Positions 11,702 through 28,494 of a stretch of 32,000 bases of DNA are shown piece by piece. A program made the position numbers and the translations under genes. Under the pieces are notes generated by a model. The model did not search any database. It saw only the letters and a program-made list of their open reading frames with translations, and was not told the origin of the DNA. Position 1 is the stretch's first letter. Each line of letters opens with the position of its first letter. Source of the DNA: Candidatus Electrothrix sp. GW3-4 (GTDB taxonomy: Bacteria; Desulfobacterota; Desulfobulbia; Desulfobulbales; Desulfobulbaceae); contig NZ_CP147990.1 in the NCBI RefSeq assembly GCF_037902255.1, forward strand, positions 2,460,001-2,492,000. The letters run 5' to 3'.

Positions 11702-12514
11702 ATGATCGGCATTTTCGACTCTGGTGTCGGCGGGATGACCGTTGCCAGAACAATTGAGCAGGTATGCCCGCAATATCCCCTCCTGTACTTTGGCGATGTT
11801 GCCCATACCCCATATGGCTCCAAAAGTTCTGAAACCATAACGGGCTATTCCCGTCGCAACACTGAGTTCCTGCTCAACCAAGGTGCAAAAGTTATCGTTG
11901 TTGCCTGTAATTCAGCAGCTGCAACCTCGGTTGACACCCTACGGGCTGAATACGCTGTTCCCATCATAGATGTCATCACCGCAACAACCAGGAAAGCGGC
12001 AGAGGGAACAGTAAACAGACGAATCGGCATCATTGGCACCCGCGCGACAGTCCAATCCGGCATCTACGAGAAACAAATCAAACAACTGCGCCCTGCCTGC
12101 CAAATATACGGTCAGGCCTGCCCACTCCTTGTCCCCCTGATAGAGGAAGGATGGCTCAATCAGCGTGAAACCAAGATGATCTTACGGCGCTACCTTACTC
12201 CGCTCCGACAGCACCAAATTGACACCTTAATTCTGGGATGTACCCATTACCCCCTCTTGACCCATCTTATCCAGAAAAGAATCGGCAAAAGGGTGCATAT
12301 AATTGATTCATCAATAGAAACAGCTCGGCACTTAAAATCTTTTCTTGACAATTCACCTGAAATAACATCAACTATCAGAAAAAAAATGCAGGACTGTCCA
12401 CCTCACCATCTTGAGAAGAATCGTTTTTTTGTATCCGATTCCACCCCGCCCTTACAAAAGCTGGCCAACGGAATCTTTGGTCGAAAAATCAACCTTATTA
12501 CAACACATGCTTAA
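11702..12514 (+). CDS. murI: Glutamate racemase
   Basis: 270-aa ORF with MIGIFDSGVGGMTV, VVACNSAAA and LGCTHYPLL. Both catalytic Cys contexts are present. Confidence 0.9.
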   Translation: MIGIFDSGVGGMTVARTIEQVCPQYPLLYFGDVAHTPYGSKSSETITGYSRRNTEFLLNQGAKVIVVACNSAAATSVDTLRAEYAVPIIDVITATTRKAAEGTVNRRIGIIGTRATVQSGIYEKQIKQLRPACQIYGQACPLLVPLIEEGWLNQRETKMILRRYLTPLRQHQIDTLILGCTHYPLLTHLIQKRIGKRVHIIDSSIETARHLKSFLDNSPEITSTIRKKMQDCPPHHLEKNRFFVSDSTPPLQKLANGIFGRKINLITTHA

Positions 12515-13208
12515 GCGAAACACATCCCAGCCTTTTGCCTTGCTTCTTTATTTTTTCCTCTGTGCTCTTTCACCTCATGCCCAGGCGGCAGCCGTCCCCC
12601 TTGAACAGCTTGAAAAAATACAGCAATACTACCGCAACCTGACCAGTCTCAGTTTTGATTTCAGACAAATTACCAACAGCAACGGGAGGACCAGAGAAGG
12701 TGCTGGCAGCAGTACTTTTTTTCGCCCTTCCTCAACGACTTCAGGTATTATGCGCTGGGATTACAGCAAACCCGGCAAACAGATTATCTTAAACGACGGC
12801 AAAGAACTTTCCATCTATACGGAGAAAGACAAACAGCTGCTCATTATGTCAGCCCAAAAGCTGCAATCCGACATAACCTACTCCTTTTTTGTTGGTAAAC
12901 GTGATCTGAAAGAGGACTTTGATCTCTTGCCGGTAGCCAGCCATTTTGCCAGCAAAATGAACGGACAATCTGGTATTGCCGTCCAGCTGGTCCCCAAACA
13001 ACCCCATGGACAGATCAAGTCGCTCCATTTCTGGTTTGATAAGGACGAAAGAATCAGACGACTTATTATGGAAGATCATTTTGAAACAACAACAGAACTG
13101 ATCTTCAGCAATATCCAGGTCAATACATTACCAGCAGATTCACCGCAAACAATCGCTCAACTGGTCCAATTAAACATCCCCTCTGATACTGAAATTATCA
13201 GACAATAA
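12507..13208 (+). CDS. lolA: LolA-like outer-membrane lipoprotein carrier protein
   Basis: Start moved to the ATG at 12507, which gives the signal peptide MLKRNTSQPFALLLYFFLCALSPHAQA. It overlaps the murI stop by 8 nt. LEKIQQYYRNLTSLSFDFRQ...GIMRWDYSKPGKQIILNDGKELSIY is LolA-like. Confidence 0.7.
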   Translation: MLKRNTSQPFALLLYFFLCALSPHAQAAAVPLEQLEKIQQYYRNLTSLSFDFRQITNSNGRTREGAGSSTFFRPSSTTSGIMRWDYSKPGKQIILNDGKELSIYTEKDKQLLIMSAQKLQSDITYSFFVGKRDLKEDFDLLPVASHFASKMNGQSGIAVQLVPKQPHGQIKSLHFWFDKDERIRRLIMEDHFETTTELIFSNIQVNTLPADSPQTIAQLVQLNIPSDTEIIRQ

Positions 13209-15776: not shown

Positions 15777-16622
15777 TCAGATTCGTCGGGAAAAACGAAA
15801 AACATTATGCGGACAGATGTCAATACAGCGCCCGCAGTTCAGACAGTTTTTTGCAAGAATAAACGGTGAGCTCTGCGCATCACCTTTGAGCGCAGGCCGG
15901 ATGACCTGGGGTTCAGGACAGACAGCAAAACAATCGCCGCAATCGGTACATTGCCCTCGTCCAGCAGCCTTTATTCTCAGAAGAGCAACAAAGCTCAACA
16001 GGCTGTACATGGCTCCCATGGGGCAGAGATGCCCGCACCAAGCACGCCGCAGCAGAAAAGCATCAAAGGCAAAAATGGCCAGGATGAAAATCCATCCCAT
16101 CCCCATACCGAACAACAGACCCCGCTGCAACATGGTCACCGGGTTGAGCCATTCATAAACAATGGTTCCGCTGACAGCAGACAAGATAAGAATCGCCCCC
16201 ATGAACCCATAGCGCGTCTTCTTGCTCAGCTGGAGGACTTTTTTCATCCCCATCCTCCTGTTCAACCAGGCAGCTGTATCAGTCACCAGGTTCACGGGGC
16301 AGACCCAGGCACAGAATACTCCGCCACCAAGCAAGGCATAGAGGACGATCACGACCAAGGCACCGACCAAGGCGCTTGATGCTGGCGAATGACCGGCTGC
16401 AAGGGATTGGAACATAATCAGCGGGTCTGTCATAGGAAGGAAACCCAAGACCTCGCTGGCTGACAGGGTTCCTCTGATAAGCCAAAGCCCGAGCAAAGGA
16501 CCTGCCAAAAAAATCCCCAGAATGGCAAGCTGCGAGATTCGACGCAGAAGCAGCCATTTATACGAGCGTACCCAACCTTTTTTTTCCACCGCCTCTTGGC
16601 CTGGCCTTCTTTTCTCGATCAT
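15777..16622 (-). CDS. napH: Membrane-bound quinol dehydrogenase subunit of the Nap system
   Basis: 281-aa ORF with four TM segments, CPVNLVTD and CGHLCPMGA motifs, and C-terminal [13 protein letters not shown] and [13 protein letters not shown] ferredoxin motifs. Its start overlaps the napG stop by 4 nt. Confidence 0.9.
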
Positions 16623-17497
16623 GGCAATTCCTCCGGCATCCGCACAGGCAATTGCAGGGCCTCAGGTATAAGGGACTGGCCTGCTTTCTCTTTCTCCTGC
16701 CAACCCAGACGATAATGGTGCCCAAGCTCACCCCGTGCCTGGGCAAGGGGCAGCACCTTGATCGCTGGATGTTCCAAAATGCAGGAACGTTCGCATTTTC
16801 CGCAGCCTGTACAGTGCTTGGAATGCACTGTGGGAATAAAACGGGCATGCATGCCGGTTCGTTGATTCGCTACCATATCCAGGGTCAGGGCCTTATCCAG
16901 TACCGGGCAGTTCCGATAGCAGACATCACAGCGCAGCCCCTGAAAACCGATGCAATTTTCATGATCAATGAGCACGGCCAGTCCCATTCTTGCCTCATAG
17001 ACGGAAGGCTCCTTCTTTTCCTCATCGAGAAGGGTCTTCTGACTCAAGGCCCCGGAAGGGCAGGCCCGGACGCAGGGCATATCCTCACATAAGCGGCAGG
17101 GACTGGTTCGGGGAACAAAATACGGGGTCCCCACCGGAACATCGCTGCCTGCTTCGGCCAAACGCAAAACCGGCTCCAGCTCTACAGAGGCGTTGGGATT
17201 CACCTCCATTGGCCCGTCGGCATTCATCTCCGGCATGTCATTATTGCGCAGGAGATTGGCATGACAGGCCCGGACACATTGCCCGCAACGCAGGCAGGCT
17301 GCCTGGAACGCCTTTTCCGGCAGAGCCCCTGGTGGGCGTATTGCCCGGGCAGGCACAGCCTGAGCAGAGCGCTGATAGGCCCCCAGCCCCACAGCCAGCA
17401 CAAAGGCCCCAGCAGCAGCTGACAGGGTATCTCTCAGAAAGCGACGACGTCCCTCCTCCTCCCTGTTATGGTGCTGTCTTGTTTCTCTTTCATCCAT
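16619..17497 (-). CDS. napG: Periplasmic ferredoxin-type subunit of the Nap quinol dehydrogenase
   Basis: 292-aa ORF with a twin-arginine signal ([17 protein letters not shown]) and four Cys clusters ([45 protein letters not shown]). Confidence 0.9.
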
Positions 17498-17531
17498 TTC
17501 GGTCTCCTTAGGCCATGCTTGAGATCTTGCT

Positions 17532-20024
17532 TTAGGCCTTGGTCACCTTGACGGCACATTTTTTATAATCCGTTTCTTTGGAGATCGGACAGGTGGCATC
17601 CAGAGTCAGCTTATTGACCAGGCGGCCTGCATCAAACCAGGGCACAAACACCAGCCCTTCCGGCGGCTTATTCCTTCCTCTGGTCTCCAGAGGACAGGTA
17701 ATCTCACCCCGACGGGAAGCAAGCTTGACCAGCTGCCCGCGCTTGAGGCCCCGTTTTTCCGCATCCTTGGGATGCATAAAGACCTGAGCATCAGGCACAG
17801 CCCGGTACAGCTCCGGCACCCTTCTGGTCATGGAACCGGAATGCCAATGCTCCAGGACCCGACCGGTACAGAGCCAGAGATCATACTCCTTATCCGGTGA
17901 TTCCGCAGGCGGCTCATAGGGCAAGGCAAAGATCACCGCCTTACCATCGAGCTTACCGTAAAAACGAATGCCCTCACCCTTCTTCACATAGGGATCATAG
18001 CCTTCCCGGAACCGCCACAGGGTTTCTTTATTATCCACCACCGGCCAACGCAGGCCACGTGCCTTATGATACATCTCAAAGGGGGCCAGGTCATGACCAT
18101 GTCCCCGGCCAAAGCTGGCATACTCCTCAAACAGGCCCTTTTGCAGGTAGAAACCAAAATGATGAGCCTCGTCGTTATCGTGCCCCTTTTGCAGTTCGCT
18201 CAAGGGGAACTTATCCACCTGTCCATTGGTATAGAGCACCTCATACAGGGTCTTGCCCTTATAGGCTGGATTCTTGTCCAGGAGCTCCTGAGGCCAGATC
18301 TCATCGGTTGTGAAGTACTTGGAAAACTCCACCAGCTGCCAGAGATCACTCTTTGCCTCACCCGGTGCCTTGACCTGCTGGCGGAAAAACTGGGTCCGAC
18401 GTTCCGCATTGCCATAGGCCCCTTCCTTTTCTGTCCACATGGCTGTGGGCAGGATCAGATCACCAGCCATCGCCGTGACCGTGGGATAGGGATCAGAAAC
18501 CACGACAAAGTTTTTCGGATTGCGGTAGCCAGGATAGGCTTCCTCGTTGATATTGGCAGCGGCCTGCATGTTATTATTACACATGACCCAATAGGCATTG
18601 AGCTTCCCGTCCTTAAGCATCCTGTTCTGAAGCACAGCATGATAGCCAGGTTTCCCAGGAATGGTACCAGCGGGTAATTTCCAGATCTTCTCTGCTATCT
18701 CACGATGCTTGGGATTTTTCACCACCATGTCAGCAGGCAGGCGATGAGAGAAGGTACCCACCTCACGGGCCGTACCGCAGGCCGAGGGCTGGCCGGTGAG
18801 CGAAAAGGGGCCATTGCCTGGTTCGGAGATCTTGCCGGTGAGCAGATGGATATTATAGCAGAGCTGATTGGCCCAGGTGCCACGGGTATGTTGATTAAAG
18901 CCCATGGTCCAGTAGGAGACCACCTTGCGCTTGGGATCTGCATAGAGCTCAGCCAGAGCCTCTAAATCCTTTTTTGGCACCCCGGATATCTCATGGGCCT
19001 TGTCCAAGGTGTACTCGGAGACATACTTGGCATACTCCTCAAAGGTGTACTCTTTTGAGCCACCTGTATTCGCAGCATTGGCAGCCTTTTTTTCCCTAGG
19101 GTCTTCGGGACGCAGACCATAGCCGATATCGGTATTACCGATACGAAAATTGATGTGCTTGTCGACAAAATCCTTATTCACCTTGTTATTCTTAATAATA
19201 TAATTGGCAATATAATTCATGATGGCCAGATCGCTCTGGGGTTTGAACACCATAGGAATATCTGCCAGGTCAAAACAACGGTGCTCATAGGTAGAAAGCA
19301 CGGCCACCTTGACATGATTCGCTGTCAGGCGTCGATTAGTGAGCCGGGACCAAAGAATAGGGTGCATCTCCGCCATGTTGGAGCCCCAGAGGACAAAGGC
19401 ATCTGCATTCTCCAGGTCATCATAACAGCCCATAGGCTCGTCAATGCCAAAGGTACGCATAAAACCCGCAACAGCTGAGGCCATACAATGGCGGGCATTG
19501 GGATCAAGATTATTGGAGAGAAAACCTGCCTTAAAGAGCTTGGCAGCGGCATAGCCTTCCCAGACCTGCCATTGCCCGGAACCGAACATACCCACCGTGG
19601 TTGGTCCGTTCTTGTGAATCGCCTCTTTAAATTTCTCGGCCATGATCTTGAAGGCCTCCTCCCAGGAGACCGGAGTAAATTCGCCGTTTTTATCGTACTT
19701 GCCGTTTTTCTTGCGCAGCAAAGGTTTGGTGAGGCGATCCTTGCCGTACATGATCTTGGTCAGGAAATAACCCTTGATACAGTTCAACCCCTTATTCACC
19801 GGGGCATCAGGGTCGCCCTGGGTCGCCACAATCCGACCGTCCTTGGTCCCCACCAAGACACCGCAACCTGTACCGCAAAAACGACAAGGTGCCTTATCCC
19901 ATCGGATCCCCTTATCCCCCTCAGCAGCCAAGGCCTTTTGCGTGGCCGGGAGCTGCGCACCTGCAACAGCGGCAGCGGCCATTGCAGCGTTGGCCTTAAT
20001 AAAATCACGCCTGTTTAGCTTCAT
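17532..20024 (-). CDS. napA: Periplasmic nitrate reductase catalytic molybdopterin subunit
   Basis: 830-aa ORF with a Tat signal ([19 protein letters not shown]), the N-terminal 4Fe-4S motif CRFCGTGCG and the Mo-ligand context ARHCMASAV. It appears collinear with NapA throughout. Confidence 0.97.
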
Positions 20025-20045
20025 AGACTTTCCTCCTTTCCTGGT

Positions 20046-20288
20046 TTATACGCACTCTTCATCGCAATAGTTATAGATAAGGGACGCAGCAAGAACACCC
20101 TGCGTTTTTTGCACATCCATCATCACATCGGAGGGCACATTATCCGGCGTGTCTTCCAAGGTAATAACGATAGAGCCCTCGTCGTTGTTCACAGCATGGA
20201 TCTCCACACCGGAAAACTCTGCCAGACGTTGCTGGACCGCTTCCGAAGTATCAGGGGAGACCCGGACAACAATGCCGGAAATATTCAT
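20046..20288 (-). CDS. napD: NapA maturation chaperone
   Basis: The 80-aa ORF MNISGIVVRVSPDTSEAVQQRLAEFSGVEIHAVNNDEGSIVITLE has NapD-like sequence and sits directly upstream of napA. Its start overlaps the napF stop by 4 nt. Confidence 0.8.
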   Translation of the reverse strand: MNISGIVVRVSPDTSEAVQQRLAEFSGVEIHAVNNDEGSIVITLEDTPDNVPSDVMMDVQKTQGVLAASLIYNYCDEECV

Positions 20289-20863
20289 GCGTCACCTCGT
20301 GGTAGAGATTGATTGAGAGATTGCTTGAAAGACTGATTTTCGATATATTGGAGTGAAATGGCCTGAACAGGGCAGCCTGCAACGCAGGCCCCACAGCCAT
20401 TGCATTGTTCAGGCAGGATTTGTGGAAGCAGGTCGTCCTGACCTCCTCTGGCAAAAACAATTGCCTCTTGTTCACATTGTTCCTGACAGAGCTGACAGAG
20501 GACCTTTTTCTCCAGCAGACAATCCTGCTGAACAACAACACGGAGCTGCCAGGGAGGGGTATTTGGGGAAAAGGAGAGGGCACCAATTGTACAGCTGCGG
20601 GCGCAGTCCCCGCAGAAGGTGCATGGCCCTTTGGAAAAATCCATAATCGGCAGCTTATTTTCTCCCGAAATGATCAGCTCCTCGGCACAGGAAGATACAC
20701 ATGCAGCGCAGCCAGTACACAGGGTCTGAAAGGTCTCAGGATCAGATGACCAGGGAGGAAAAACTCTGTTTTGCTGTTCTTCTGAACAGTTATCCACCCT
20801 TTCCACATCTACCTGCAGGAGGTATTCAAGACATTTATTTACAAAAAAGGAGGCCAAACTCAT
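20285..20863 (-). CDS. napF: Cytoplasmic ferredoxin-type Nap accessory protein
   Basis: 192-aa ORF with no signal peptide. Four Cys-cluster motifs (CTGCAACVSSC, CTFCGDCARSC, CQLCQEQC, CNGCGACVAGCP). It is the first gene of the operon, as in napFDAGHB(C). Confidence 0.8.
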   Translation of the reverse strand: MSLASFFVNKCLEYLLQVDVERVDNCSEEQQNRVFPPWSSDPETFQTLCTGCAACVSSCAEELIISGENKLPIMDFSKGPCTFCGDCARSCTIGALSFSPNTPPWQLRVVVQQDCLLEKKVLCQLCQEQCEQEAIVFARGGQDDLLPQILPEQCNGCGACVAGCPVQAISLQYIENQSFKQSLNQSLPRGDA

Positions 20864-21095: not shown

Positions 21096-21109
21096 TTGAT
21101 ATACATCAA
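21096..21109. promoter_or_regulatory. Perfect FNR/CRP-family consensus box TTGAT-ATAC-ATCAA
   Basis: Read directly: ccTTGATatacATCAAaa. It lies in the napF / Crp-Fnr divergent intergenic region, 14 nt upstream of the regulator ATG (21123) and 233 nt from the napF ATG. Confidence 0.65.
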
Positions 21110-21122
21110 AAAATGTTATTTT

Positions 21123-21800
21123 ATGCTTGATAGAGACGAAAAAAAAACAATTCTGGCAGGCTCCATGCTTTTTCAGAAACTTTCTGATGAGCTGATTAAC
21201 CAGCTGGTAAATCTGGCCCGGCAAAAAAACTATCAAAAAGGAGAGACCATTTTTCTGGAGGGCTGGCCGGTTGCTGGCTTTTATCTTGTCGCCCAGGGAC
21301 AGGTGAAAATTTTCAAATCTTCACCAAACGGAAAAGAACAAATATTCTATGTCCTGGGCCCTGGAGAGCCCTTTGGACTGACCCCGATTTTTCATAACAA
21401 GACATTTCCCGCCTGTGCCTCAAGCATGCTTCCATCCACCACCCTTTTCTTTCCCAGAGCGGAATTTCTCCGCATGACAAACACCCATCCGCCCTTAGCG
21501 CTGTCCATGCTGGCCGGGCTGTCGCAGCGTCTGTGTAAACTCTCCATAAAACTAGGTGACCTCGCACTCAAAGAGGTGCCACAACGTCTGGTTGCGCACC
21601 TTATCTACCTTTCCCAAAAACAGGGAAAAACCGACCGAATATGCCTTGACATGCCCAAATCACAACTCGCCTGCCTGCTAGGTACCAGCCCGGAAAATCT
21701 CTCCAGAATCTTTGCCAATATGAGCCGTACTGGCCAAATCCGGGTACACGGCAACATGATTGAGTTCCTCTGCTACCAAAAACTTCTTCAGGACAACTAA
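21123..21800 (+). CDS. Crp/Fnr-family transcriptional regulator lacking the FNR N-terminal Cys cluster
   Basis: Contains a cNMP-binding-like beta-roll (GETIFLEGWPVAGFYLVAQGQVKIF) and a C-terminal HTH with the E--SR recognition motif (SPENLSRIF). I moved the start to the ATG at 21123, because the ORF-track start at 21096 is a TTG inside the FNR box. Confidence 0.85.
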   Translation: MLDRDEKKTILAGSMLFQKLSDELINQLVNLARQKNYQKGETIFLEGWPVAGFYLVAQGQVKIFKSSPNGKEQIFYVLGPGEPFGLTPIFHNKTFPACASSMLPSTTLFFPRAEFLRMTNTHPPLALSMLAGLSQRLCKLSIKLGDLALKEVPQRLVAHLIYLSQKQGKTDRICLDMPKSQLACLLGTSPENLSRIFANMSRTGQIRVHGNMIEFLCYQKLLQDN

Positions 21801-22061: not shown

Positions 22062-23531
22062 ATGAGAGTGGTATTGTGGACGGCTGCCTTGGCGCTGGCA
22101 GTCGGAATACAAGGTGGGAACGTGCAGGCCGCGCAGAAAAGCGGGCTGCCCAGCCAATTGTCAGAGGAAACCAAAACATGTTTGCAATGTCATAAAGACA
22201 TTAACCGGGGCATGTATCAACAATGGGGATCCAGTAAACATTTCGGCGCCAATGTGGGCTGTTACGAATGTCATCAGGCCGACGCTGGGGACAAAGATGC
22301 TATGCAGCATAACGGCTTCACTGTTTCCATTATTGTTTCACCCAAGGATTGTGCCAAATGTCATGAAAAAGAGGTCAAGGAATTTGAGGGATCACATCAT
22401 TCCAAGGCCGGACAGATCATGGGTTCCCTGGACAACCTGCTTGCTGAGGTTGTTGAAGGCAACCGTGGCATGAAGACCGAAAGTTTCCCGGACGGAATTT
22501 CAGCGGCAGCGGTCAACGGTTGCTGGCAATGTCACGGATCCAAGGTTAAGATAATGAAGGATGGTCGGCTGGATCCGGCCACTTGGCCGAACAGCGGCAT
22601 TGGACGCATCAATCCTGACGGGAGCACAGGAAGTTGCGCAGCATGCCATCAACGCCATGATTTCTCTGCGGCCCAGGCCAGAAATCCTGAGAACTGCGGT
22701 AAATGTCATATGGGACCCGATCATCCGCAGCTTGAGGTCTATAATGAATCCAAGCACGGTATTGCTTTCCGGGCCAATAAGGACAAGATGAATCTCGATT
22801 CTCCGAAATGGATAGCCGGTGAAGATTACTCTGCTGCCCCGACCTGCGCCACCTGTCATATGTCCGCGACCAAAGATCTGGATATCACCCATAACGTCGG
22901 CCTCCGCATCAAGTGGAACAACCGACCGCCGATCTCCAAGCTGTCGCATACCACTGACAAACGCTGGAAGCTGGAATCTGCCAACTACACTGCTGATCAA
23001 CGCCGGAAAGACATGCAAAAAGTCTGTATCTCATGTCACAATAAAAACTTTACAGATAACTTCTTTGTCCAGTATGAAGCTCTGATTGACCTCTATCACG
23101 AGAAATTCGCCAAACCCGGCATGGAACTGTACAACAAAGCAACAGAACTGCTCAAGGTCCTCAAAGGTAAAGAGTATGCCAAGTTTGCTCAGCTCATTGA
23201 TTACACTTGGTTTGAGATCTGGCATCATGAAGGTCGTCGCGCACGTCACGGTGCGGCCATGATGGCACCGGACTACACCCATTGGCACGGCACCTATGAA
23301 GTTGCCAAGCACTGGTACGGCAAGTACATCCCGGAACTCGAAGAACTCATTGAAACGGCCAAGCACAGCGGCAATAAAGAAGCTGAGAAATTGGGTGGTG
23401 AGCTTGCAACGATGCTCGAAGATGTGAAGAAGAACGAGAACCATAAATGGTCCATCGGGCAGGAAAACGAAGCTGACAAGAAATTACGGCTTGAGCGTAA
23501 GAAAGAATACGACGCTGGCTACGCCAACTAA
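22062..23531 (+). CDS. Hydroxylamine-oxidoreductase-family octaheme cytochrome c (epsilon-Hao-like; probable periplasmic nitrite reductase)
   Basis: 489-aa ORF with signal peptide MRVVLWTAALALAVGIQGGNVQA. Eight CxxCH motifs (CLQCH, CYECH, CAKCH, CWQCH, CAACH, CGKCH, CATCH, CISCH). HAO-family signatures CHMGPDHPQLEVYNESKHG and WHHEGRRARHGAAMMAPDY. Strong SD (AGGAGG). Confidence 0.85.
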   Translation: MRVVLWTAALALAVGIQGGNVQAAQKSGLPSQLSEETKTCLQCHKDINRGMYQQWGSSKHFGANVGCYECHQADAGDKDAMQHNGFTVSIIVSPKDCAKCHEKEVKEFEGSHHSKAGQIMGSLDNLLAEVVEGNRGMKTESFPDGISAAAVNGCWQCHGSKVKIMKDGRLDPATWPNSGIGRINPDGSTGSCAACHQRHDFSAAQARNPENCGKCHMGPDHPQLEVYNESKHGIAFRANKDKMNLDSPKWIAGEDYSAAPTCATCHMSATKDLDITHNVGLRIKWNNRPPISKLSHTTDKRWKLESANYTADQRRKDMQKVCISCHNKNFTDNFFVQYEALIDLYHEKFAKPGMELYNKATELLKVLKGKEYAKFAQLIDYTWFEIWHHEGRRARHGAAMMAPDYTHWHGTYEVAKHWYGKYIPELEELIETAKHSGNKEAEKLGGELATMLEDVKKNENHKWSIGQENEADKKLRLERKKEYDAGYAN

Positions 23532-23590: not shown

Positions 23591-23625
23591 AGGCCGCCCA
23601 GAGCACTCTGGGCGGCCTCTTTTTG
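23591..23625 (+). terminator. Rho-independent terminator of the octaheme cytochrome gene
   Basis: AGGCCGCCCAGAG / CTCTGGGCGGCCT inverted repeat followed by CTTTTT. Confidence 0.75.
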
Positions 23626-23640
23626 GGAAGCTGCTTCTCA

Positions 23641-23779
23641 TCCCCACATATGTGGGGCGTAGTTTCGCACCAGGGCAAGCACGGTCCTGCCGTCTCACTG
23701 ATCACAGTTCATGGGATCCCAGTCTCTCGTTGAGCATCACCCCTTATACTCAGGCTTCTTGACCGCCATCCTAACGCTC
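23641..23779 (-). pseudogene. Decayed internal fragment of a RhuM/Fic(Doc)-family gene, paralogous to the intact gene at 27493-28494
   Basis: Nucleotide similarity seen directly: 23656-23700 (ggcgtagtttcgcaccagggcaagcacggtcctgccgtc-tcactga) against 27994-28040 (ggcatagtttcgcaccaaagaaaggatggtcctgccgtcatcactga). The minus-strand translation with stops and one frameshift reads ER*DGGQEA*V*GVMLNERLGSHEL / DGRTVLALVRNYAPHMWG. It aligns to QRLVEKGGAEVRQVLDLLSETLENHALVSDDGRTILSLVRNYARTWQLLW, roughly residues 125-172 of the intact protein. Confidence 0.6.
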
Positions 23780-23800
23780 GAAATACCTGAGCCCATTTTT

Positions 23801-24406
23801 TTATACATCCTCTGTCCTCAGCCCCCGGACATAATTGCGCACCAAGGATTCGGCCAGCACCTCTGCGGATTCCGCATGGATAATATCCAGCTTACCGCTC
23901 ACCGCAAGGGCGCATATCCCATGCAGTCCCGCCCAAAGCACTCGCGCTGCCCGCTCTGCCCTTTCAGTGTCATCCTCCACTAAGGGGACAACCATTCGAG
24001 CGACCAACAAAAAGAGCTCATCAATCTGTTGCTGATGCCACTCCGGCAGGGTGTTCCCCGGTGCCAATTTATGCTCCAGCACCAACGACCACAGATTATA
24101 GTTTTCCCGACAGAAGACGACATAGGACTGGCCCAGTCGTATGAGGCCGGTGACCGCATCATCATCCTGCCTGGTGTCCGCCAGGAGCCGGGATTTTAAT
24201 TCACTCAGGGTCACACCATTCACCCTCAGGATAATTTCATCAAGACTGCTGAAGACGTTATATATTGTACCAACGGCACAGCCAATCTTCTGGGCGATTT
24301 TTCTGACCGTTAAAGAGGATGAACCATGCTCTCTCACTGTTGCAGTCGCAACTTCAATGACAGTGACCCGCAATTGTCGGTATGCCACTTTTTGTCCACG
24401 TCCCAT
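23801..24406 (-). CDS. TetR/AcrR-family transcriptional regulator
   Basis: 201-aa ORF with the N-terminal HTH LTVRKIAQKIGCAVGTIYNVFSSLDEII. It is divergent from the VIT-vWA gene. Confidence 0.9.
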   Translation of the reverse strand: MGRGQKVAYRQLRVTVIEVATATVREHGSSSLTVRKIAQKIGCAVGTIYNVFSSLDEIILRVNGVTLSELKSRLLADTRQDDDAVTGLIRLGQSYVVFCRENYNLWSLVLEHKLAPGNTLPEWHQQQIDELFLLVARMVVPLVEDDTERAERAARVLWAGLHGICALAVSGKLDIIHAESAEVLAESLVRNYVRGLRTEDV

Positions 24407-24490
24407 ACGTACTCCTTCCTCGTTTTTTCAGTTGCTGCCTGAGATACTTTCTATCGTACAACAAAAAAAAAGGGAGGGAAAGTTTCTCCT

Positions 24491-24569
24491 TGAACACTGT
24501 TCATAAAAACTGTACGGTATTAACATGAACAGTGTTCATATATTTTTCATTCGACGTGAACATGGTTCA
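24491..24569. promoter_or_regulatory. Three copies of a 13-bp palindrome TGAACA-N-TGTTCA (candidate TetR operators)
   Basis: Read directly: TGAACACTGTTCA (24491-24503), TGAACAGTGTTCA (24526-24538) and TGAACATGGTTCA (24557-24569, one mismatch). All lie in the 192-bp TetR / VIT-vWA divergent spacer, and the last ends 29 nt before the ATG at 24599. Confidence 0.7.
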
Positions 24570-24598
24570 TAAAAACAACCATAACCTGGAGTGAAATC

Positions 24599-26709
24599 AT
24601 GAAACGCATCAATCAACTCGTTGCCAACGTCCTGCTCTACTGCCTGTTCCCCTTGCTCGGAGCTGGATCTGCTCAAGCAGCCGGTCTGCTCACCCCAAGC
24701 GACCATAGCCTGCCAGCCCTGGAAATCAAGGATCACCGCGTGCAAGTGGTTATTGAGGACGGCTACGCCATCACCACGGTGGAACAGGTCTTTCATAATC
24801 CGCATGCACAGGATCTTGAGGCGATGTATTCCTTTCCAGTACCGGAAAAGGCTGCGGTTGCAGAGTTCACCCTGTGGATCGACAATAAGCCGGTACACGG
24901 TGAAGTGCTGGAAAAGGACAAGGCCAGAACGATCTATGAAGAACAGAAGGCTGCCGGAGAGGACGCCGGGCTGACCGAAAAAGACAGTTACAAGACCTTT
25001 GACATCATGGTGTCGCCGGTGCGGGCGGGACAGGACACCCGAATCCGGATCGGCTATATCCAGCCGGTCAAGGTGGACAGTTCTATGGGACGTTATGTCT
25101 ATCCCTTGGAGGAAGGCGGGGTGGATGACGCCAAGCTCTCCTTCTGGACAGCCAATGAAAAGGTTACCCATACCTTCCGTTTTGATCTGATCCTGCGGCC
25201 CGGCTATCCGGTGGACGGGATACGCCTGCCCAACCACCCTACAGCCACCATTGAACACAAGGGAGACAGCTACCATGTCCATCTCGGCAACAGCAGCGGT
25301 CCCCCTCTCCAGAGGCGATCGTTGATACGGAAAACAGGAAAGGAAACACGGCAGCGCGCCCGGAAACTGGACAGAAGATTGCCCAGACAACAAGCCTGCA
25401 ACAACCGGGTGCAGCCTTTACTCTGGACAGGGATATTGTGGTCTACTATCGCCACGCGGAAAACCTGCCCGGTGCAGTCGACCTGGTCACCTATAAGCCG
25501 GAACAGGGAAAGACAGGTACCTTTATGCTCACGCTCACTCCGGCCATGGATCTCAAACCCATCACCGAGGGCCGGGACTGGCTTTTTATCCTGGATATTT
25601 CGGGATCCATGAGTGGCAAGTATCACACCCTGGCAGAAGGCGTCAGCCGGGCTTTGCAAAAGATGGCCCCTGATGAGCGATTCCGAATAATCCTGTTCAA
25701 TGATTCCGCTGCTGAACTGACCCAAGGCTATACCCCGGCCACCCCGGAGAACGTGCAGCAATATATCGACAAGGTCGGGAAGATCGGGCCTCATGGGAGT
25801 ACCAATGTCTACGACGGCCTGTACAAGGGCTTGAAGGGTCTGGACAGCGACCGAACCAGCGCGGTCCTCCTGGTGACCGATGGGGTGGCCAATGTGGGGG
25901 TTACCAAACAAAAGGACTTTATCAAACTGATCCGCAGCTATGATGTACGCCTCTTCACCTTTATCATGGGCAACAGTGCCAACCTCCCCCTGCTCACCGC
26001 CATCACCGATGCCTCCAACGGTTTTGCCATGACGGTTTCCAACAGCGACGACATTGTCGGCTCCATCCTGCTGGCCCAATCCAAGGTCACCCATGAGGCC
26101 CTGCACGGGGCAAAACTTACAATCAAAGGCATCAAGACCTTTGACCTGCTGCCGGAGAAAATCGGCAGCCTCTATCGCGGGCAGCAGCTGATCATGTTCG
26201 GTCATTACAGCAGGGGCGGCCAAGCGAAAGTCACCCTGAGCGGCAAGATCTCTGGTGAAGAAAAGATTTACCAGAGCGAGTTTATCTTCCCGGAGACCTC
26301 CTCAGCAAACCCTGAACTGGAACGACTCTGGGCCTATGCCAGCATTGAGCAGCTCAGCCGGGAGATGGAAGATTTCGGCGAAGATGCCGATATGAAACAG
26401 GCGATAACCGATCTGGGCGTTCAGTACGGCCTGGTCACCGATTACACCTCTATGATTGTGGTACGGGACGGGGTGTTCAAGAAACTCGGTATCGAACGGA
26501 GAAACACCAAGCGGTTACAACGGGAATTCGCTGCCCAGAAGGAACGGGCTGCCAAACCACTTGTACAACGTCGGGCTGATACGGCACGCCCCATGTTTAA
26601 GAGCAAGCGGCCCACCACGCGCCGTTCTGGTGGTGGAAGCTTTGACCTGATCTCTTTGCTTGTGCTCTTACCCTTGGTCTGGATCGGGCGCAGAAAAAAA
26701 CAGGCCTAA
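24599..26709 (+). pseudogene. VIT-domain plus von Willebrand factor A-domain protein with a C-terminal GlyGly-CTERM sorting signal. The reading frame is interrupted by a 1-nt frameshift near 25301-25305
   Basis: ORF 24599-25612 encodes a signal peptide (LLYCLFPLLGAGSAQA) and a VIT-like N-domain up to ...HVHLGNSSG, then turns into Arg-rich nonsense. A different frame is open from 25255 and reads SPSPEAIVDTENRKGN...FTLDRDIVVYYR into ORF 25438-26709, which carries the vWA MIDAS motif DISGSMSG and VLLVTDGVANVG. The C-terminus RRSGGGSFDLISLLVLLPLVWIGRRKKQA is Gly-Gly plus a TM helix plus a basic tail. Confidence 0.8.
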
Positions 26710-26857
26710 ACAAGACAAGGATTGGGGCGATGGGCTGGTTGCCCCAATCCGTCATTCATGCCGACATCGCATAGGGGGGGGAGGTCTTTGTGTCTCCCCT
26801 GTTCTACCACCCCTTGGACAAACACAGGGGCTTGGCCCCTACAGCAGGGAGAAGAAA

Positions 26858-27487
26858 ATGACTCTGTTCAGGAACAACGATAAGCACGCAAATCACCGAC
26901 AAACACCTTGGTTCACCGCTACCCTCTGCCTTATCACCTTGCTCTTCTTCTCAATCTACGGCAAGGCACCGGCAGCCCTGATTTATGATCGCACCGCCAT
27001 TGCCCATGGAGAGGTCTGGCGCCTGCTCACGGGTCATTACACCCATTGCGATCTGCCCCATCTACTCTGGAACCTGCTCCCGCTGGCGCTTATCGGGGGC
27101 CTGCTGGAACAACGAATCGGCTGGCAGCGCTTTGCCAGAGCAACCATTGTCAGCTGCCTGGGGGTCAGCAGCTGGTTATGGTTTGCCCGGACCGACATGC
27201 TCCTCTACTGCGGCCTGTCCGGGATGCTCAACGGCCTACTGATCGTGCTGCTGGTCAGGCTTTGGCAGGAGACCAGGAACAGGGCACTCCCGCTCATCGG
27301 GATGGTCGTCATTGCAAAGGTCCTCCTTGAAACGGCAAGGCAGGAGGCGATCTTCACCCATCTGAGTTGGGCTGGCCTGCCTGAAGCGCACGGGGCCGGG
27401 CTGATCGCCGGAATTTTTTTCCTTATGCTCACACATGGGGAGAAAAAAAGAGCGTTCCCCCACAGCTGGGGGGCAGCGGGAGAATGA
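26858..27487 (+). CDS. rrtA: Rhombosortase (rhomboid-family intramembrane serine protease dedicated to GlyGly-CTERM proteins)
   Basis: Start moved to the ATG at 26858, which follows GGGAGAAG. The roughly 209-aa polytopic protein carries GEVWRLLTGHYTHCDLPHLLWNL, the catalytic-Ser context CGLSGMLNGL and the catalytic-His context EAHGAGLIAGIFF. Its size and its position next to a GlyGly-CTERM protein fit rhombosortase. Confidence 0.75.
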   Translation: MTLFRNNDKHANHRQTPWFTATLCLITLLFFSIYGKAPAALIYDRTAIAHGEVWRLLTGHYTHCDLPHLLWNLLPLALIGGLLEQRIGWQRFARATIVSCLGVSSWLWFARTDMLLYCGLSGMLNGLLIVLLVRLWQETRNRALPLIGMVVIAKVLLETARQEAIFTHLSWAGLPEAHGAGLIAGIFFLMLTHGEKKRAFPHSWGAAGE

Positions 27488-27492
27488 AGGGA

Positions 27493-28494
27493 TCATGCTC
27501 CCGCCTGGATATCGCTGATTACATTTACAACAAGCCGAATAAGCAGATCTTTTTGTTCCGGGGCGCTGGAGGCAATGAGCAGGGTCAGGGCCACCAGGGC
27601 CTTATCATCTGGGATTACCCGGTGCTGGTTGCTCTGTAAAAACAGGAGAAAAAGAAAGGAGCCGATGCGTTTATTGCCATCAATAAAGGGGTGATCCTTG
27701 ATGACAAAATAGAGCAGATGAGCGGCTTTTTCTTCAATGCTGGGATAGAGATCCTGGCCAGCAAAGCTCTGTCCCACAGCACCGAGGATTCCGGCCAGGC
27801 CCTGTCCACGTTCCTGACCAAAGATATACGTGGCCTCCCCACGTACCATCAGTTCCTGACGCAAGGAGGGCACGGCTTCCCGTACCTCCTCCAATCCTGG
27901 CACCTTCTTGCTTGTCCTCTTACTTGTCCCCTCTGACCTATCGGGCAGAGGTAAGGCATCTTCATCATACTGCCAGAGCAGTTGCCAGGTGCGGGCATAG
28001 TTTCGCACCAAAGAAAGGATGGTCCTGCCGTCATCACTGACTAACGCGTGATTCTCCAGGGTCTCACTCAACAAATCCAGTACCTGCCTGACCTCGGCCC
28101 CCCCTTTTTCCACCAGCCGCTGCTGATGCAGGGTGTATCCCTGGACCAGATGCTGTTTGAGCACGCTGGTCGCCCAGATCCGAAACTGGGTACCGCGCTT
28201 GGAATTAACCCGGTAGCCAACAGAAAGAATAGCGTCAAGGTTATAATAATCAACCTGATAGGTTTTGCCATCTGCGGCAGTTGTTGCATTTTTTGCAACA
28301 ACTGCTGAACGCTCCAGTTCCTCGGACTGAAAAATATTGCGAAGATGCCGAGATATTACCGATTTATCCCTTCCAAAAAGCTCAGCGACCTGGTTCAAGG
28401 TCAGCCAGACGGTTTCATCCCTCAGCTGCACGTCCACAGCAGCCTGACCATCACCGGTCTGATAGACAATAACTTCTCCCTGCTCAAAGGTCAT
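27493..28494 (-). CDS. RhuM-like N-terminal domain fused to a Fic/Doc-family domain (Doc-type motif HPFIDGNKR)
   Basis: 333-aa ORF. The N-terminal WLTLNQVAELFGRDKSVISRHLRNIF...YNLDAILSVGYRVNSKRGTQFRIWAT is RhuM-like. The C-terminal YFVIKDHPFIDGNKRIGSFLFLLFL is the Fic-fold active-site motif in its Doc (NKR) variant. Confidence 0.85.
   Translation of the reverse strand: MTFEQGEVIVYQTGDGQAAVDVQLRDETVWLTLNQVAELFGRDKSVISRHLRNIFQSEELERSAVVAKNATTAADGKTYQVDYYNLDAILSVGYRVNSKRGTQFRIWATSVLKQHLVQGYTLHQQRLVEKGGAEVRQVLDLLSETLENHALVSDDGRTILSLVRNYARTWQLLWQYDEDALPLPDRSEGTSKRTSKKVPGLEEVREAVPSLRQELMVRGEATYIFGQERGQGLAGILGAVGQSFAGQDLYPSIEEKAAHLLYFVIKDHPFIDGNKRIGSFLFLLFLQSNQHRVIPDDKALVALTLLIASSAPEQKDLLIRLVVNVISDIQAGA

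Follow-up and report, generated by a model that had tools for sequence, protein, structure and literature searches.

Dedicated systems in which a single-target rhombosortase adjoins its target were already described by Haft and Varghese in 2011 (PMC3237569); Table 3 of that work includes the deltaproteobacterial Desulfuromonas, Geobacter M18 and Syntrophobacter, and its Fig. 3C aligns vault, von Willebrand factor type A (vWA) and inter-alpha-trypsin-inhibitor (ITI) homologues whose tails are of the GlyGly-CTERM, PEP-CTERM or LPXTG type. In VesB of Vibrio cholerae, the second Gly is uncovered by cleavage and then bears an adduct, either ethanolamine or glycerophosphoethanolamine (PMC6219818), and in the same species processing by RssP alone suffices for membrane association (PMC13393428). 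We analyzed a comparable locus from Candidatus Electrothrix sp. GW3-4, located on contig NZ_CP147990.1 of assembly GCF_037902255.1 within a stretch of 32,000 nucleotides (positions 2,460,001 to 2,492,000 of the forward strand), hereafter the window, whose own numbering is used throughout. Positions 23801-27487 of the window hold a three-gene module that is real, comprising a repressor gene with three conserved DNA sites (tetR), a gene for an exported adhesin-like protein with VIT and vWA domains and a C-terminal sorting tail (the cargo), and a gene for a membrane protease (rrtA). Reading these positions from sequence, we consider them to be a ligand-inducible, dedicated rhombosortase sorting module, with a probability of roughly 0.8. 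An original prediction, made from the letters of the DNA, had proposed the same parts, and tetR, the triple palindrome, the VIT-vWA gene with its tail and a 209-aa rhomboid were all found in place.

The rrtA gene (26858..27487, plus strand) encodes the 209-aa protein, a rhombosortase. Its product scored 115.9 bits against TIGR03902 (equivalog cutoff of 84) and 59.5 bits against the Pfam Rhomboid model, while its scores against two GlpG models (38.1 and 29.4 bits) stayed far under the respective cutoffs of 335 and 250. The original prediction had itself named this comparison as one on which its assignment could fail, and the outcome favors a rhombosortase over a generic GlpG-like rhomboid. Both catalytic contexts that had been pointed out, Ser (GLSG) and His (AHGAG), are present, with HLLWN in addition; aligned to GlpG (4qnz), HLLWN (H68/N72), GLSG (Ser121) and AHGAG (His178) correspond to H150/N154, S201 and H254.

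The sorting tail of the cargo (26626..26706, plus strand) reads SGGGSFDLISLLVLLPLVWIGRRKKQA, exactly as quoted beforehand. It makes up the last 27 residues of the protein, which divide into SGGG, SFDLISLLVLLPLVWIG and RRKKQA, that is, the Gly motif, the transmembrane helix and the basic end of the tripartite GlyGly-CTERM architecture at the extreme C-terminus. A Gly-rich motif, a hydrophobic helix and a basic end were seen in essentially all homologues examined. A window-wide scan of protein tails yielded one plausible GlyGly-CTERM-type gene, the cargo, after discarding a second tail-like match (19059-19478, plus strand) that was an antisense open reading frame (ORF) inside the napA gene.

The cargo gene spans 24599..26709 (plus strand), ends in this Gly-Gly/transmembrane/basic tail and is split by a frameshift in the window. 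Its 5' part (24599..25305, plus strand, frame 2) encodes a Sec signal peptide read from the sequence (aa 1-27, with the predicted cut between SAQA and AG) and a VIT domain at aa 43-153 (Pfam VIT, 111.1 bits), and its 3' part (25306..26709, plus strand, frame 1) encodes a low-complexity linker, a vWA domain (Pfam VWA, 43 bits; VWA_3, 42 bits) and an ITI-heavy-chain-like C-terminal domain. The metal ion-dependent adhesion site (MIDAS) is complete (D333-x-S335-x-S337, T402 and D428) and invariant in 21 homologues, and with it the predicted VIT-vWA architecture was recovered in full. Compared with solved structures, a profile of the family matched ITIH4, ITIH1 and, in its VIT region, PARP4, and an AlphaFold model of the cargo (predicted local distance difference test of 73, predicted template-modeling score of 0.70) superposed on ITIH1 (6fpy) over ~620 columns with template-modeling scores of 0.59/0.68. 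Because of these profile matches and this superposition, the cargo is, as modeled, a full-length bacterial ITI-heavy-chain-like protein of ~76 kDa.

In the window, the cargo gene appears as two ORFs, the VIT half at 24599-25612 in frame 2 and the vWA/tail half in frame 1, the latter frame being open from 25255 and its ORF being listed from a GTG at 25438 to 26709. The original prediction had overlooked this frameshift and taken the cargo for a single intact gene. The ORF is split by a deficit of 1 nt in a C5 homopolymer (25301..25305, plus strand), which is C6 in two contigs from Logan assemblies (L001 and L002). Adding one C to this run restored a 703-aa protein that is 100% identical to a protein (P0001) encoded on two independent Logan assemblies (runs SRR28154589 and SRR28154588). 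Comparison of the window with the Logan contigs over 18.2 kb gave 0 substitutions and only indels in homopolymer length, namely T5 versus T7 at 23624 and C5 versus C6 at 25305, with a third contig (L003) adding A9 versus A10 at 21147. We judge from these alignments that the frameshift is probably a consensus error, i.e. a homopolymer miscall of the window assembly, and therefore that the cargo gene is probably intact in the organism. The same assembly likely carries further homopolymer errors elsewhere, and we note as a practical warning that such errors can split genes. Other candidate split genes in the window were rejected, as the overlapping ORF pairs at 161-1347 and 11702-13208 proved to be unrelated genes (racemase, LolA) or had no matches.

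A real frameshift would make the cargo a pseudogene in this strain and the cassette a decaying or non-functional one, which we think unlikely. It is true that the window reads C5 and that the halves are separate ORFs, and homopolymer length varies among the Logan contigs as well (the A9/A10 difference of L003), so that some of this variation could be biological. However, two independent assemblies of the same organism show C6 and an intact gene for 703 aa, homopolymer indels in the absence of any substitution are the signature of consensus error and not of divergence, and no other decay was seen, both halves being fully similar to homologues and tetR, the operators and rrtA being intact. It is far less probable still that the C run serves as a programmed frameshift or a phase-variation switch governing production of the full-length cargo. 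The break does fall exactly in a homopolymer within a poorly conserved linker, where a run of Pro codons could permit tRNA slippage, but a tract of five or six C is short for phase variation, the site has neither a canonical X XXY YYZ heptamer nor a downstream structure, and the ~100 homologues examined are all single ORFs whose linker sequence is not conserved. Elsewhere, too, the window differs from the Logan contigs by homopolymer indels, including one outside coding DNA.

The tetR gene (23801..24406, minus strand) is divergent from the cargo gene and encodes a 201-aa protein with a TetR_N helix-turn-helix and a TetR_C_33 'WHG' ligand domain (Pfam TetR_C_33, 48.3 bits; TetR_N, 28.6 bits; each over its cutoff), the nearest solved structure being the TetR-family regulator 3cjd (E-value of 6.7e-22). 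Within the 192-bp spacer between tetR and the cargo gene lie three 13-bp palindromes of the form TGAACA-N-TGTTCA, TGAACAnnGTTCA, with spacings of 35 and 31 bp. The first of these predicted operators, O1 (TGAACACTGTTCA, 24491..24503), is an exact palindrome that overlaps the putative -35 element TTGAAC (24490-24495) of the cargo promoter, itself followed after 17 bp by a putative -10 element, TACGGT (24513..24518, plus strand). O2 (TGAACAGTGTTCA, 24526..24538) starts 35 bp from O1 and lies over the expected transcription start, and O3 (TGAACATGGTTCA, 24557..24569), with a mismatch in one arm, is situated in the 5' leader ~30 nt ahead of the ATG; the leader also contains a ribosome binding site, GGAG (24588..24591, plus strand). 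The -35 and -10 elements were assigned by manual reading and by alignment of relatives, in which the -10 position is TATAGT, TACAGT or TATATT (a TAnnnT hexamer between O1 and O2). When the spacer was aligned with those of six Desulfobulbales relatives, O1, O2 and O3 were the only invariant blocks. Sites placed in this way are consistent with repression of the putative cargo promoter by simple steric hindrance.

With one mismatch allowed, the palindrome had 7 strand-wise matches in the window against 0.52 expected, a number reached in 0/100 shuffles, and the triple operator that had been proposed between tetR and the cargo gene thus stands far above chance as a set of predicted sites. A further near-match with one mismatch (23699-23711), downstream of tetR, was treated as chance. 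Across related loci, GAAC-N3-GTTC had 110 matches in the tetR-cargo spacers of 52 loci, which total 22.3 kb (4.9/kb), and 6 matches in the other 480 kb of these loci (0.012/kb), a ~400-fold enrichment in the spacer. The flanking T and A, though not demanded by the search, were invariant in 110/110 sites, and the commonest spacing between neighboring sites was 33-35 bp (modal value of 33 bp). The motif was present in 49 of the 52 loci with an upstream tetR versus 5 of the 24 without, 4 of these 5 having a cut-off flank or a displaced tetR. Since it tracks with tetR, the motif is to be assigned to TetR rather than to the cargo gene itself, and both the conserved synteny and the conserved operator lend indirect support to the local TetR switch suggested by the original prediction.

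We then considered how widely the cassette is kept. More than 3000 database proteins match the cargo family. Each of the best 120 has a length of ~700 aa and an identity of 58-83%, and these matches are spread over Ca. Electrothrix, other Desulfobulbales, Omnitrophota, Sedimenticola, Thiodiazotropha and many other Gammaproteobacteria, the closest relatives (82-83% identity) being those of Ca. Electrothrix marina and a Desulfobulbaceae metagenome-assembled genome. A cargo relative is encoded by at least 558 species-representative genomes. Neighbors were compared on a set of non-overlapping ORFs, single-linkage clustering of stop-to-stop ORFs being uninformative owing to antisense shadow ORFs. 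An rrtA homologue was found directly downstream of the cargo in 51 of 70 related loci, showing that the expected cargo-rrtA pairing recurs in relatives, and a tetR homologue occupied the equivalent place and orientation in 50 of the 67 related loci with enough upstream flank. For the 62 loci in which both flanks could be read, the arrangement tetR(-)/cargo(+)/rrtA(+) of the window was seen in 38, rrtA only in 7, tetR only in 8 and neither gene in 9, and the outer neighbors differed from locus to locus. In distant loci, median identity to the window proteins was 60% for the cargo, 40% for RrtA and 35% for TetR; the cargo, as the best conserved of the three, is therefore under the tightest constraint. 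Its conservation across phyla points to a constrained, specific function rather than that of a variable adhesin. Such conservation is not what is usually seen in a protein presumed to be a surface adhesin, and it suggests that the ligand is constrained or that the gene has spread horizontally.

A second cassette type was observed in ten related loci (L020, L022, L027, L033, L040, L055, L059, L066, L079 and L082), in which a divergent Cro/C1-type HTH_26 protein of ~270 aa replaces TetR and the cargo keeps its Gly-Gly/transmembrane/basic tail; these loci have no adjacent rhombosortase and no TGAAC-N3-GTTCA motif.

In ~21 of 80 related loci, mostly from Gammaproteobacteria, the cassette is abutted by a gene of ~1160 aa that is absent from the window and encodes a fusion of MFS_1, a PlsC-type acyltransferase and an AMP-binding domain, resembling the LplT/Aas lysophospholipid transporter and 2-acyl-glycerophosphoethanolamine acyltransferase. 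It is located behind tetR in loci L017, L025, L032, L041, L052 and L061 and after rrtA in L047, L049 and L054 (e.g. L054:7811-11320), and six loci have a PLD-like gene in its stead. Because rhombosortase products in Vibrio are joined to glycerophosphoethanolamine, this neighbor may, by analogy, be a lipid-anchor accessory.

Starting from the gene identities, catalytic residues, tail architecture, synteny and tetR-tracking operator, which were established directly, we infer how the module would work, including the cleavage, the adduct, the location of the product and the inducer. TetR dimers would occupy the three palindromes (consensus T-GAAC-R-N-Y-GTTC-A), covering the -35 element of the cargo promoter, its transcription start and its leader, and bound TetR would keep cargo and rrtA off, and probably tetR too, until a small ligand bound the TetR_C_33 domain and released the repressor. 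The cargo would be exported by Sec, as its signal peptide (...AQA/AG) suggests, with its C-terminal helix holding it in the inner membrane. By analogy, the presumably co-transcribed rhombosortase would cut at the Gly-Gly-Gly motif, and the new glycine C-terminus would be joined to a glycerophosphoethanolamine-containing lipid, as in V. cholerae VesB. If the cargo behaves like VesB, the result would be a lipid-anchored periplasmic or surface protein that binds its partner through the MIDAS metal site.

We also weighed the view that the rhomboid is a general housekeeping enzyme, that TetR regulates something else and that the three genes are neighbors by chance. TetR genes are common, and the gene on the other side of tetR encodes a multihaem cytochrome. 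Yet order and orientation are identical in the 38/62 loci counted above, which come from Desulfobulbales, Gammaproteobacteria, Betaproteobacteria and others and whose outer neighbors vary, the operator, placed in the tetR-cargo spacer, follows the presence of tetR, and the protease passes the rhombosortase equivalog model and fails those for GlpG; the synteny and the operator statistics effectively refute this view. More deserving of consideration, though clearly the less probable outcome, is that the rhombosortase is a sheddase only, hydrolyzing the anchor and releasing the VIT-vWA protein in soluble form, periplasmic or extracellular, with no lipid attached. Release was raised as a possibility by Haft and Varghese (PMC3237569), some GlyGly-CTERM proteins of V. 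cholerae end up released (PMC13393428), and neither a type II secretion system (T2SS) nor a transamidase is evident in the window. Against this, the sole rhombosortase product to have been characterized biochemically has ethanolamine/glycerophosphoethanolamine on its terminal Gly and needs detergent extraction (PMC6219818), and the LplT/Aas-like lysophospholipid enzyme gene abutting the cassette in ~21 related loci hints at a connection to lipids.

Several observations weigh against the reading of the locus as a dedicated, TetR-controlled rhombosortase module. The cargo ORF is interrupted in the window itself, and about a quarter of related loci have no adjacent rrtA. An automatic sigma-70 scan of 23600-27700 called no promoter. 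Cargo and rrtA are consecutive genes, but their co-transcription is not certain because the 148-bp gap between them holds a strong hairpin. No T2SS, which is needed for surface display in Vibrio, was seen in the window. Finally, the original prediction had put forward the GlyGly-CTERM model as a check, and TIGR03501 (cutoff of 15.5 bits) gave a divided answer, the isolated tail passing at 19.4-19.7 bits and the full 703-aa protein falling short at 13.3 bits. The same model detected 16 of 78 family tails at E<=0.01, and the tail is therefore best described as a divergent subtype. With this borderline score, the predicted GlyGly-CTERM assignment draws mainly on the architecture of the tail and on the adjoining rhombosortase.

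The hairpin between cargo and rrtA (26719..26750, plus strand) is a G+C-rich stem-loop with a 13-bp stem, located 10 nt past the cargo stop codon and devoid of a U-tract. Other G+C-rich hairpins were found at the equivalent place in the closest relatives (L004:7122-7300, L005:5471-5650 and L006:7095-7180). Speculatively, this hairpin may be an intercistronic mRNA element that sets the ratio of cargo to protease, with rrtA expressed below the cargo.

Outside the cassette, tetR is flanked by a gene for a 489-aa multihaem cytochrome c (22062-23531, plus strand) with Multi-haem_cyto and MtrC/MtrF-like matches, and a periplasmic nitrate reductase (nap) cluster (15777-20863, minus strand) and a Crp/Fnr-type regulator gene (21096-21800, plus strand) lie nearby. 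None of the cytochrome, the Crp/Fnr-type regulator and the nap cluster is kept beside the cassette in other lineages. On the other side, a gene for a 333-aa RhuM/Fic-domain protein (27493-28494, minus strand) is convergent with rrtA, 5 bp separating the stop codons. Genes of the RhuM/Fic type are often borne on islands.

A possible physiological setting is offered by LT3126 of Limnobacter thiooxidans, a 708-aa VIT+vWA protein with low basal expression whose gene shows the strongest induction of all genes by gamma rays, with heat and oxidants as further inducers, and whose overexpression led to ~200-fold higher survival at 500 Gy (bioRxiv 10.64898/2026.05.23.727404). Its authors assumed it to be cytoplasmic, and the preprint names no neighboring genes, signal peptide or transmembrane helix (bioRxiv 10.64898/2026.05.23.727404). 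Limnobacter sp. MED105 has a single GlyGly-CTERM protein according to Table 3 of Haft and Varghese (PMC3237569). In a homologue search with a betaproteobacterial family member, no Limnobacter, Ralstonia or Cupriavidus sequence was among the best 120 matches. LT3126 and the cargo described here may be members of one family. We can only tentatively, and with doubt, extend this to a widespread ligand-induced envelope stress module of the LT3126 family, in which a MIDAS protein would be covalently lipid-anchored on demand and which would have an LplT/Aas-like acyltransferase adjoining it in many Gammaproteobacteria. Were LT3126 a family member, protection would come from a protein that is exported and processed by a rhombosortase rather than from a cytoplasmic one, and the signal that induces it could be approached directly through the conserved TetR operator.

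Compared with the dedicated systems of Haft and Varghese, the locus shares a rhombosortase gene beside a GlyGly-CTERM-type protein that is the lone one within the 32-kb window, and a vault/ITI-like vWA cargo. It differs in its lineage, a Desulfobulbaceae close to cable bacteria, and in its TetR regulator and operator, neither of which is mentioned in that work (PMC3237569). The original prediction had presented the locus as a sorting-signal swap within a dedicated module; that this type of cargo is attached here to a different sorting machine stands, and the newness does not, both features being already contained in the 2011 description (PMC3237569). The locus thus adds an example related to cable bacteria to a class defined in 2011, and its novelty in this respect is limited. 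No combination of a rhombosortase with a TetR regulator of this kind was found in the literature searched, and the TetR/operator layer appears to be undescribed so far. What is seemingly new is this third conserved part of the cassette, a TetR together with 2-4 copies of its sharply defined operator (T-GAAC-N3-GTTC-A), spread over dozens of genera. A ligand of TetR or an operator reporter would make the function of bacterial ITI-heavy-chain-like proteins approachable.

With V. cholerae RssP/RrtA and VesB, the locus shares the protease family and the tripartite tail, and this sole system with demonstrated cleavage after Gly-Gly and attachment of glycerophosphoethanolamine is the mechanistic model used here (PMC6219818, PMC13393428). 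The V. cholerae arrangement is many-to-one, VesB and five other GlyGly-CTERM proteins being scattered in the genome (PMC6219818, PMC13393428); proteases and a nuclease make up most of its cargoes, a T2SS is required for their surface display, and no local TetR has been described. The marine proteobacterial sortase target (TIGR03788), which is served by a dedicated sortase of its own (TIGR03784), has in common with the locus a VIT-vWA cargo of similar length, an adjoining sorting enzyme and, as far as the window shows for the locus, a single dedicated target. The cargo is related to TIGR03788 and not a member of it, its 200.7 bits lying far under the family cutoff of 551.65, and where that system combines LPXTG with a sortase, the cargo has a GGG/transmembrane/basic tail, no LPXTG and a rhomboid as neighbor. 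Finally, ITIH1 (6fpy) and ITIH4 (9c4f) share with the cargo the full-length fold, from the VIT domain through the MIDAS-bearing vWA domain to the C-terminal domain, at ~18% sequence identity. ITI heavy chains lose a C-terminal piece during maturation, after which the new C-terminus is joined covalently to chondroitin sulphate by an ester link. In place of that ester link, the cargo would, by analogy, receive a presumed amide link to a phosphoethanolamine lipid, made by an intramembrane protease.

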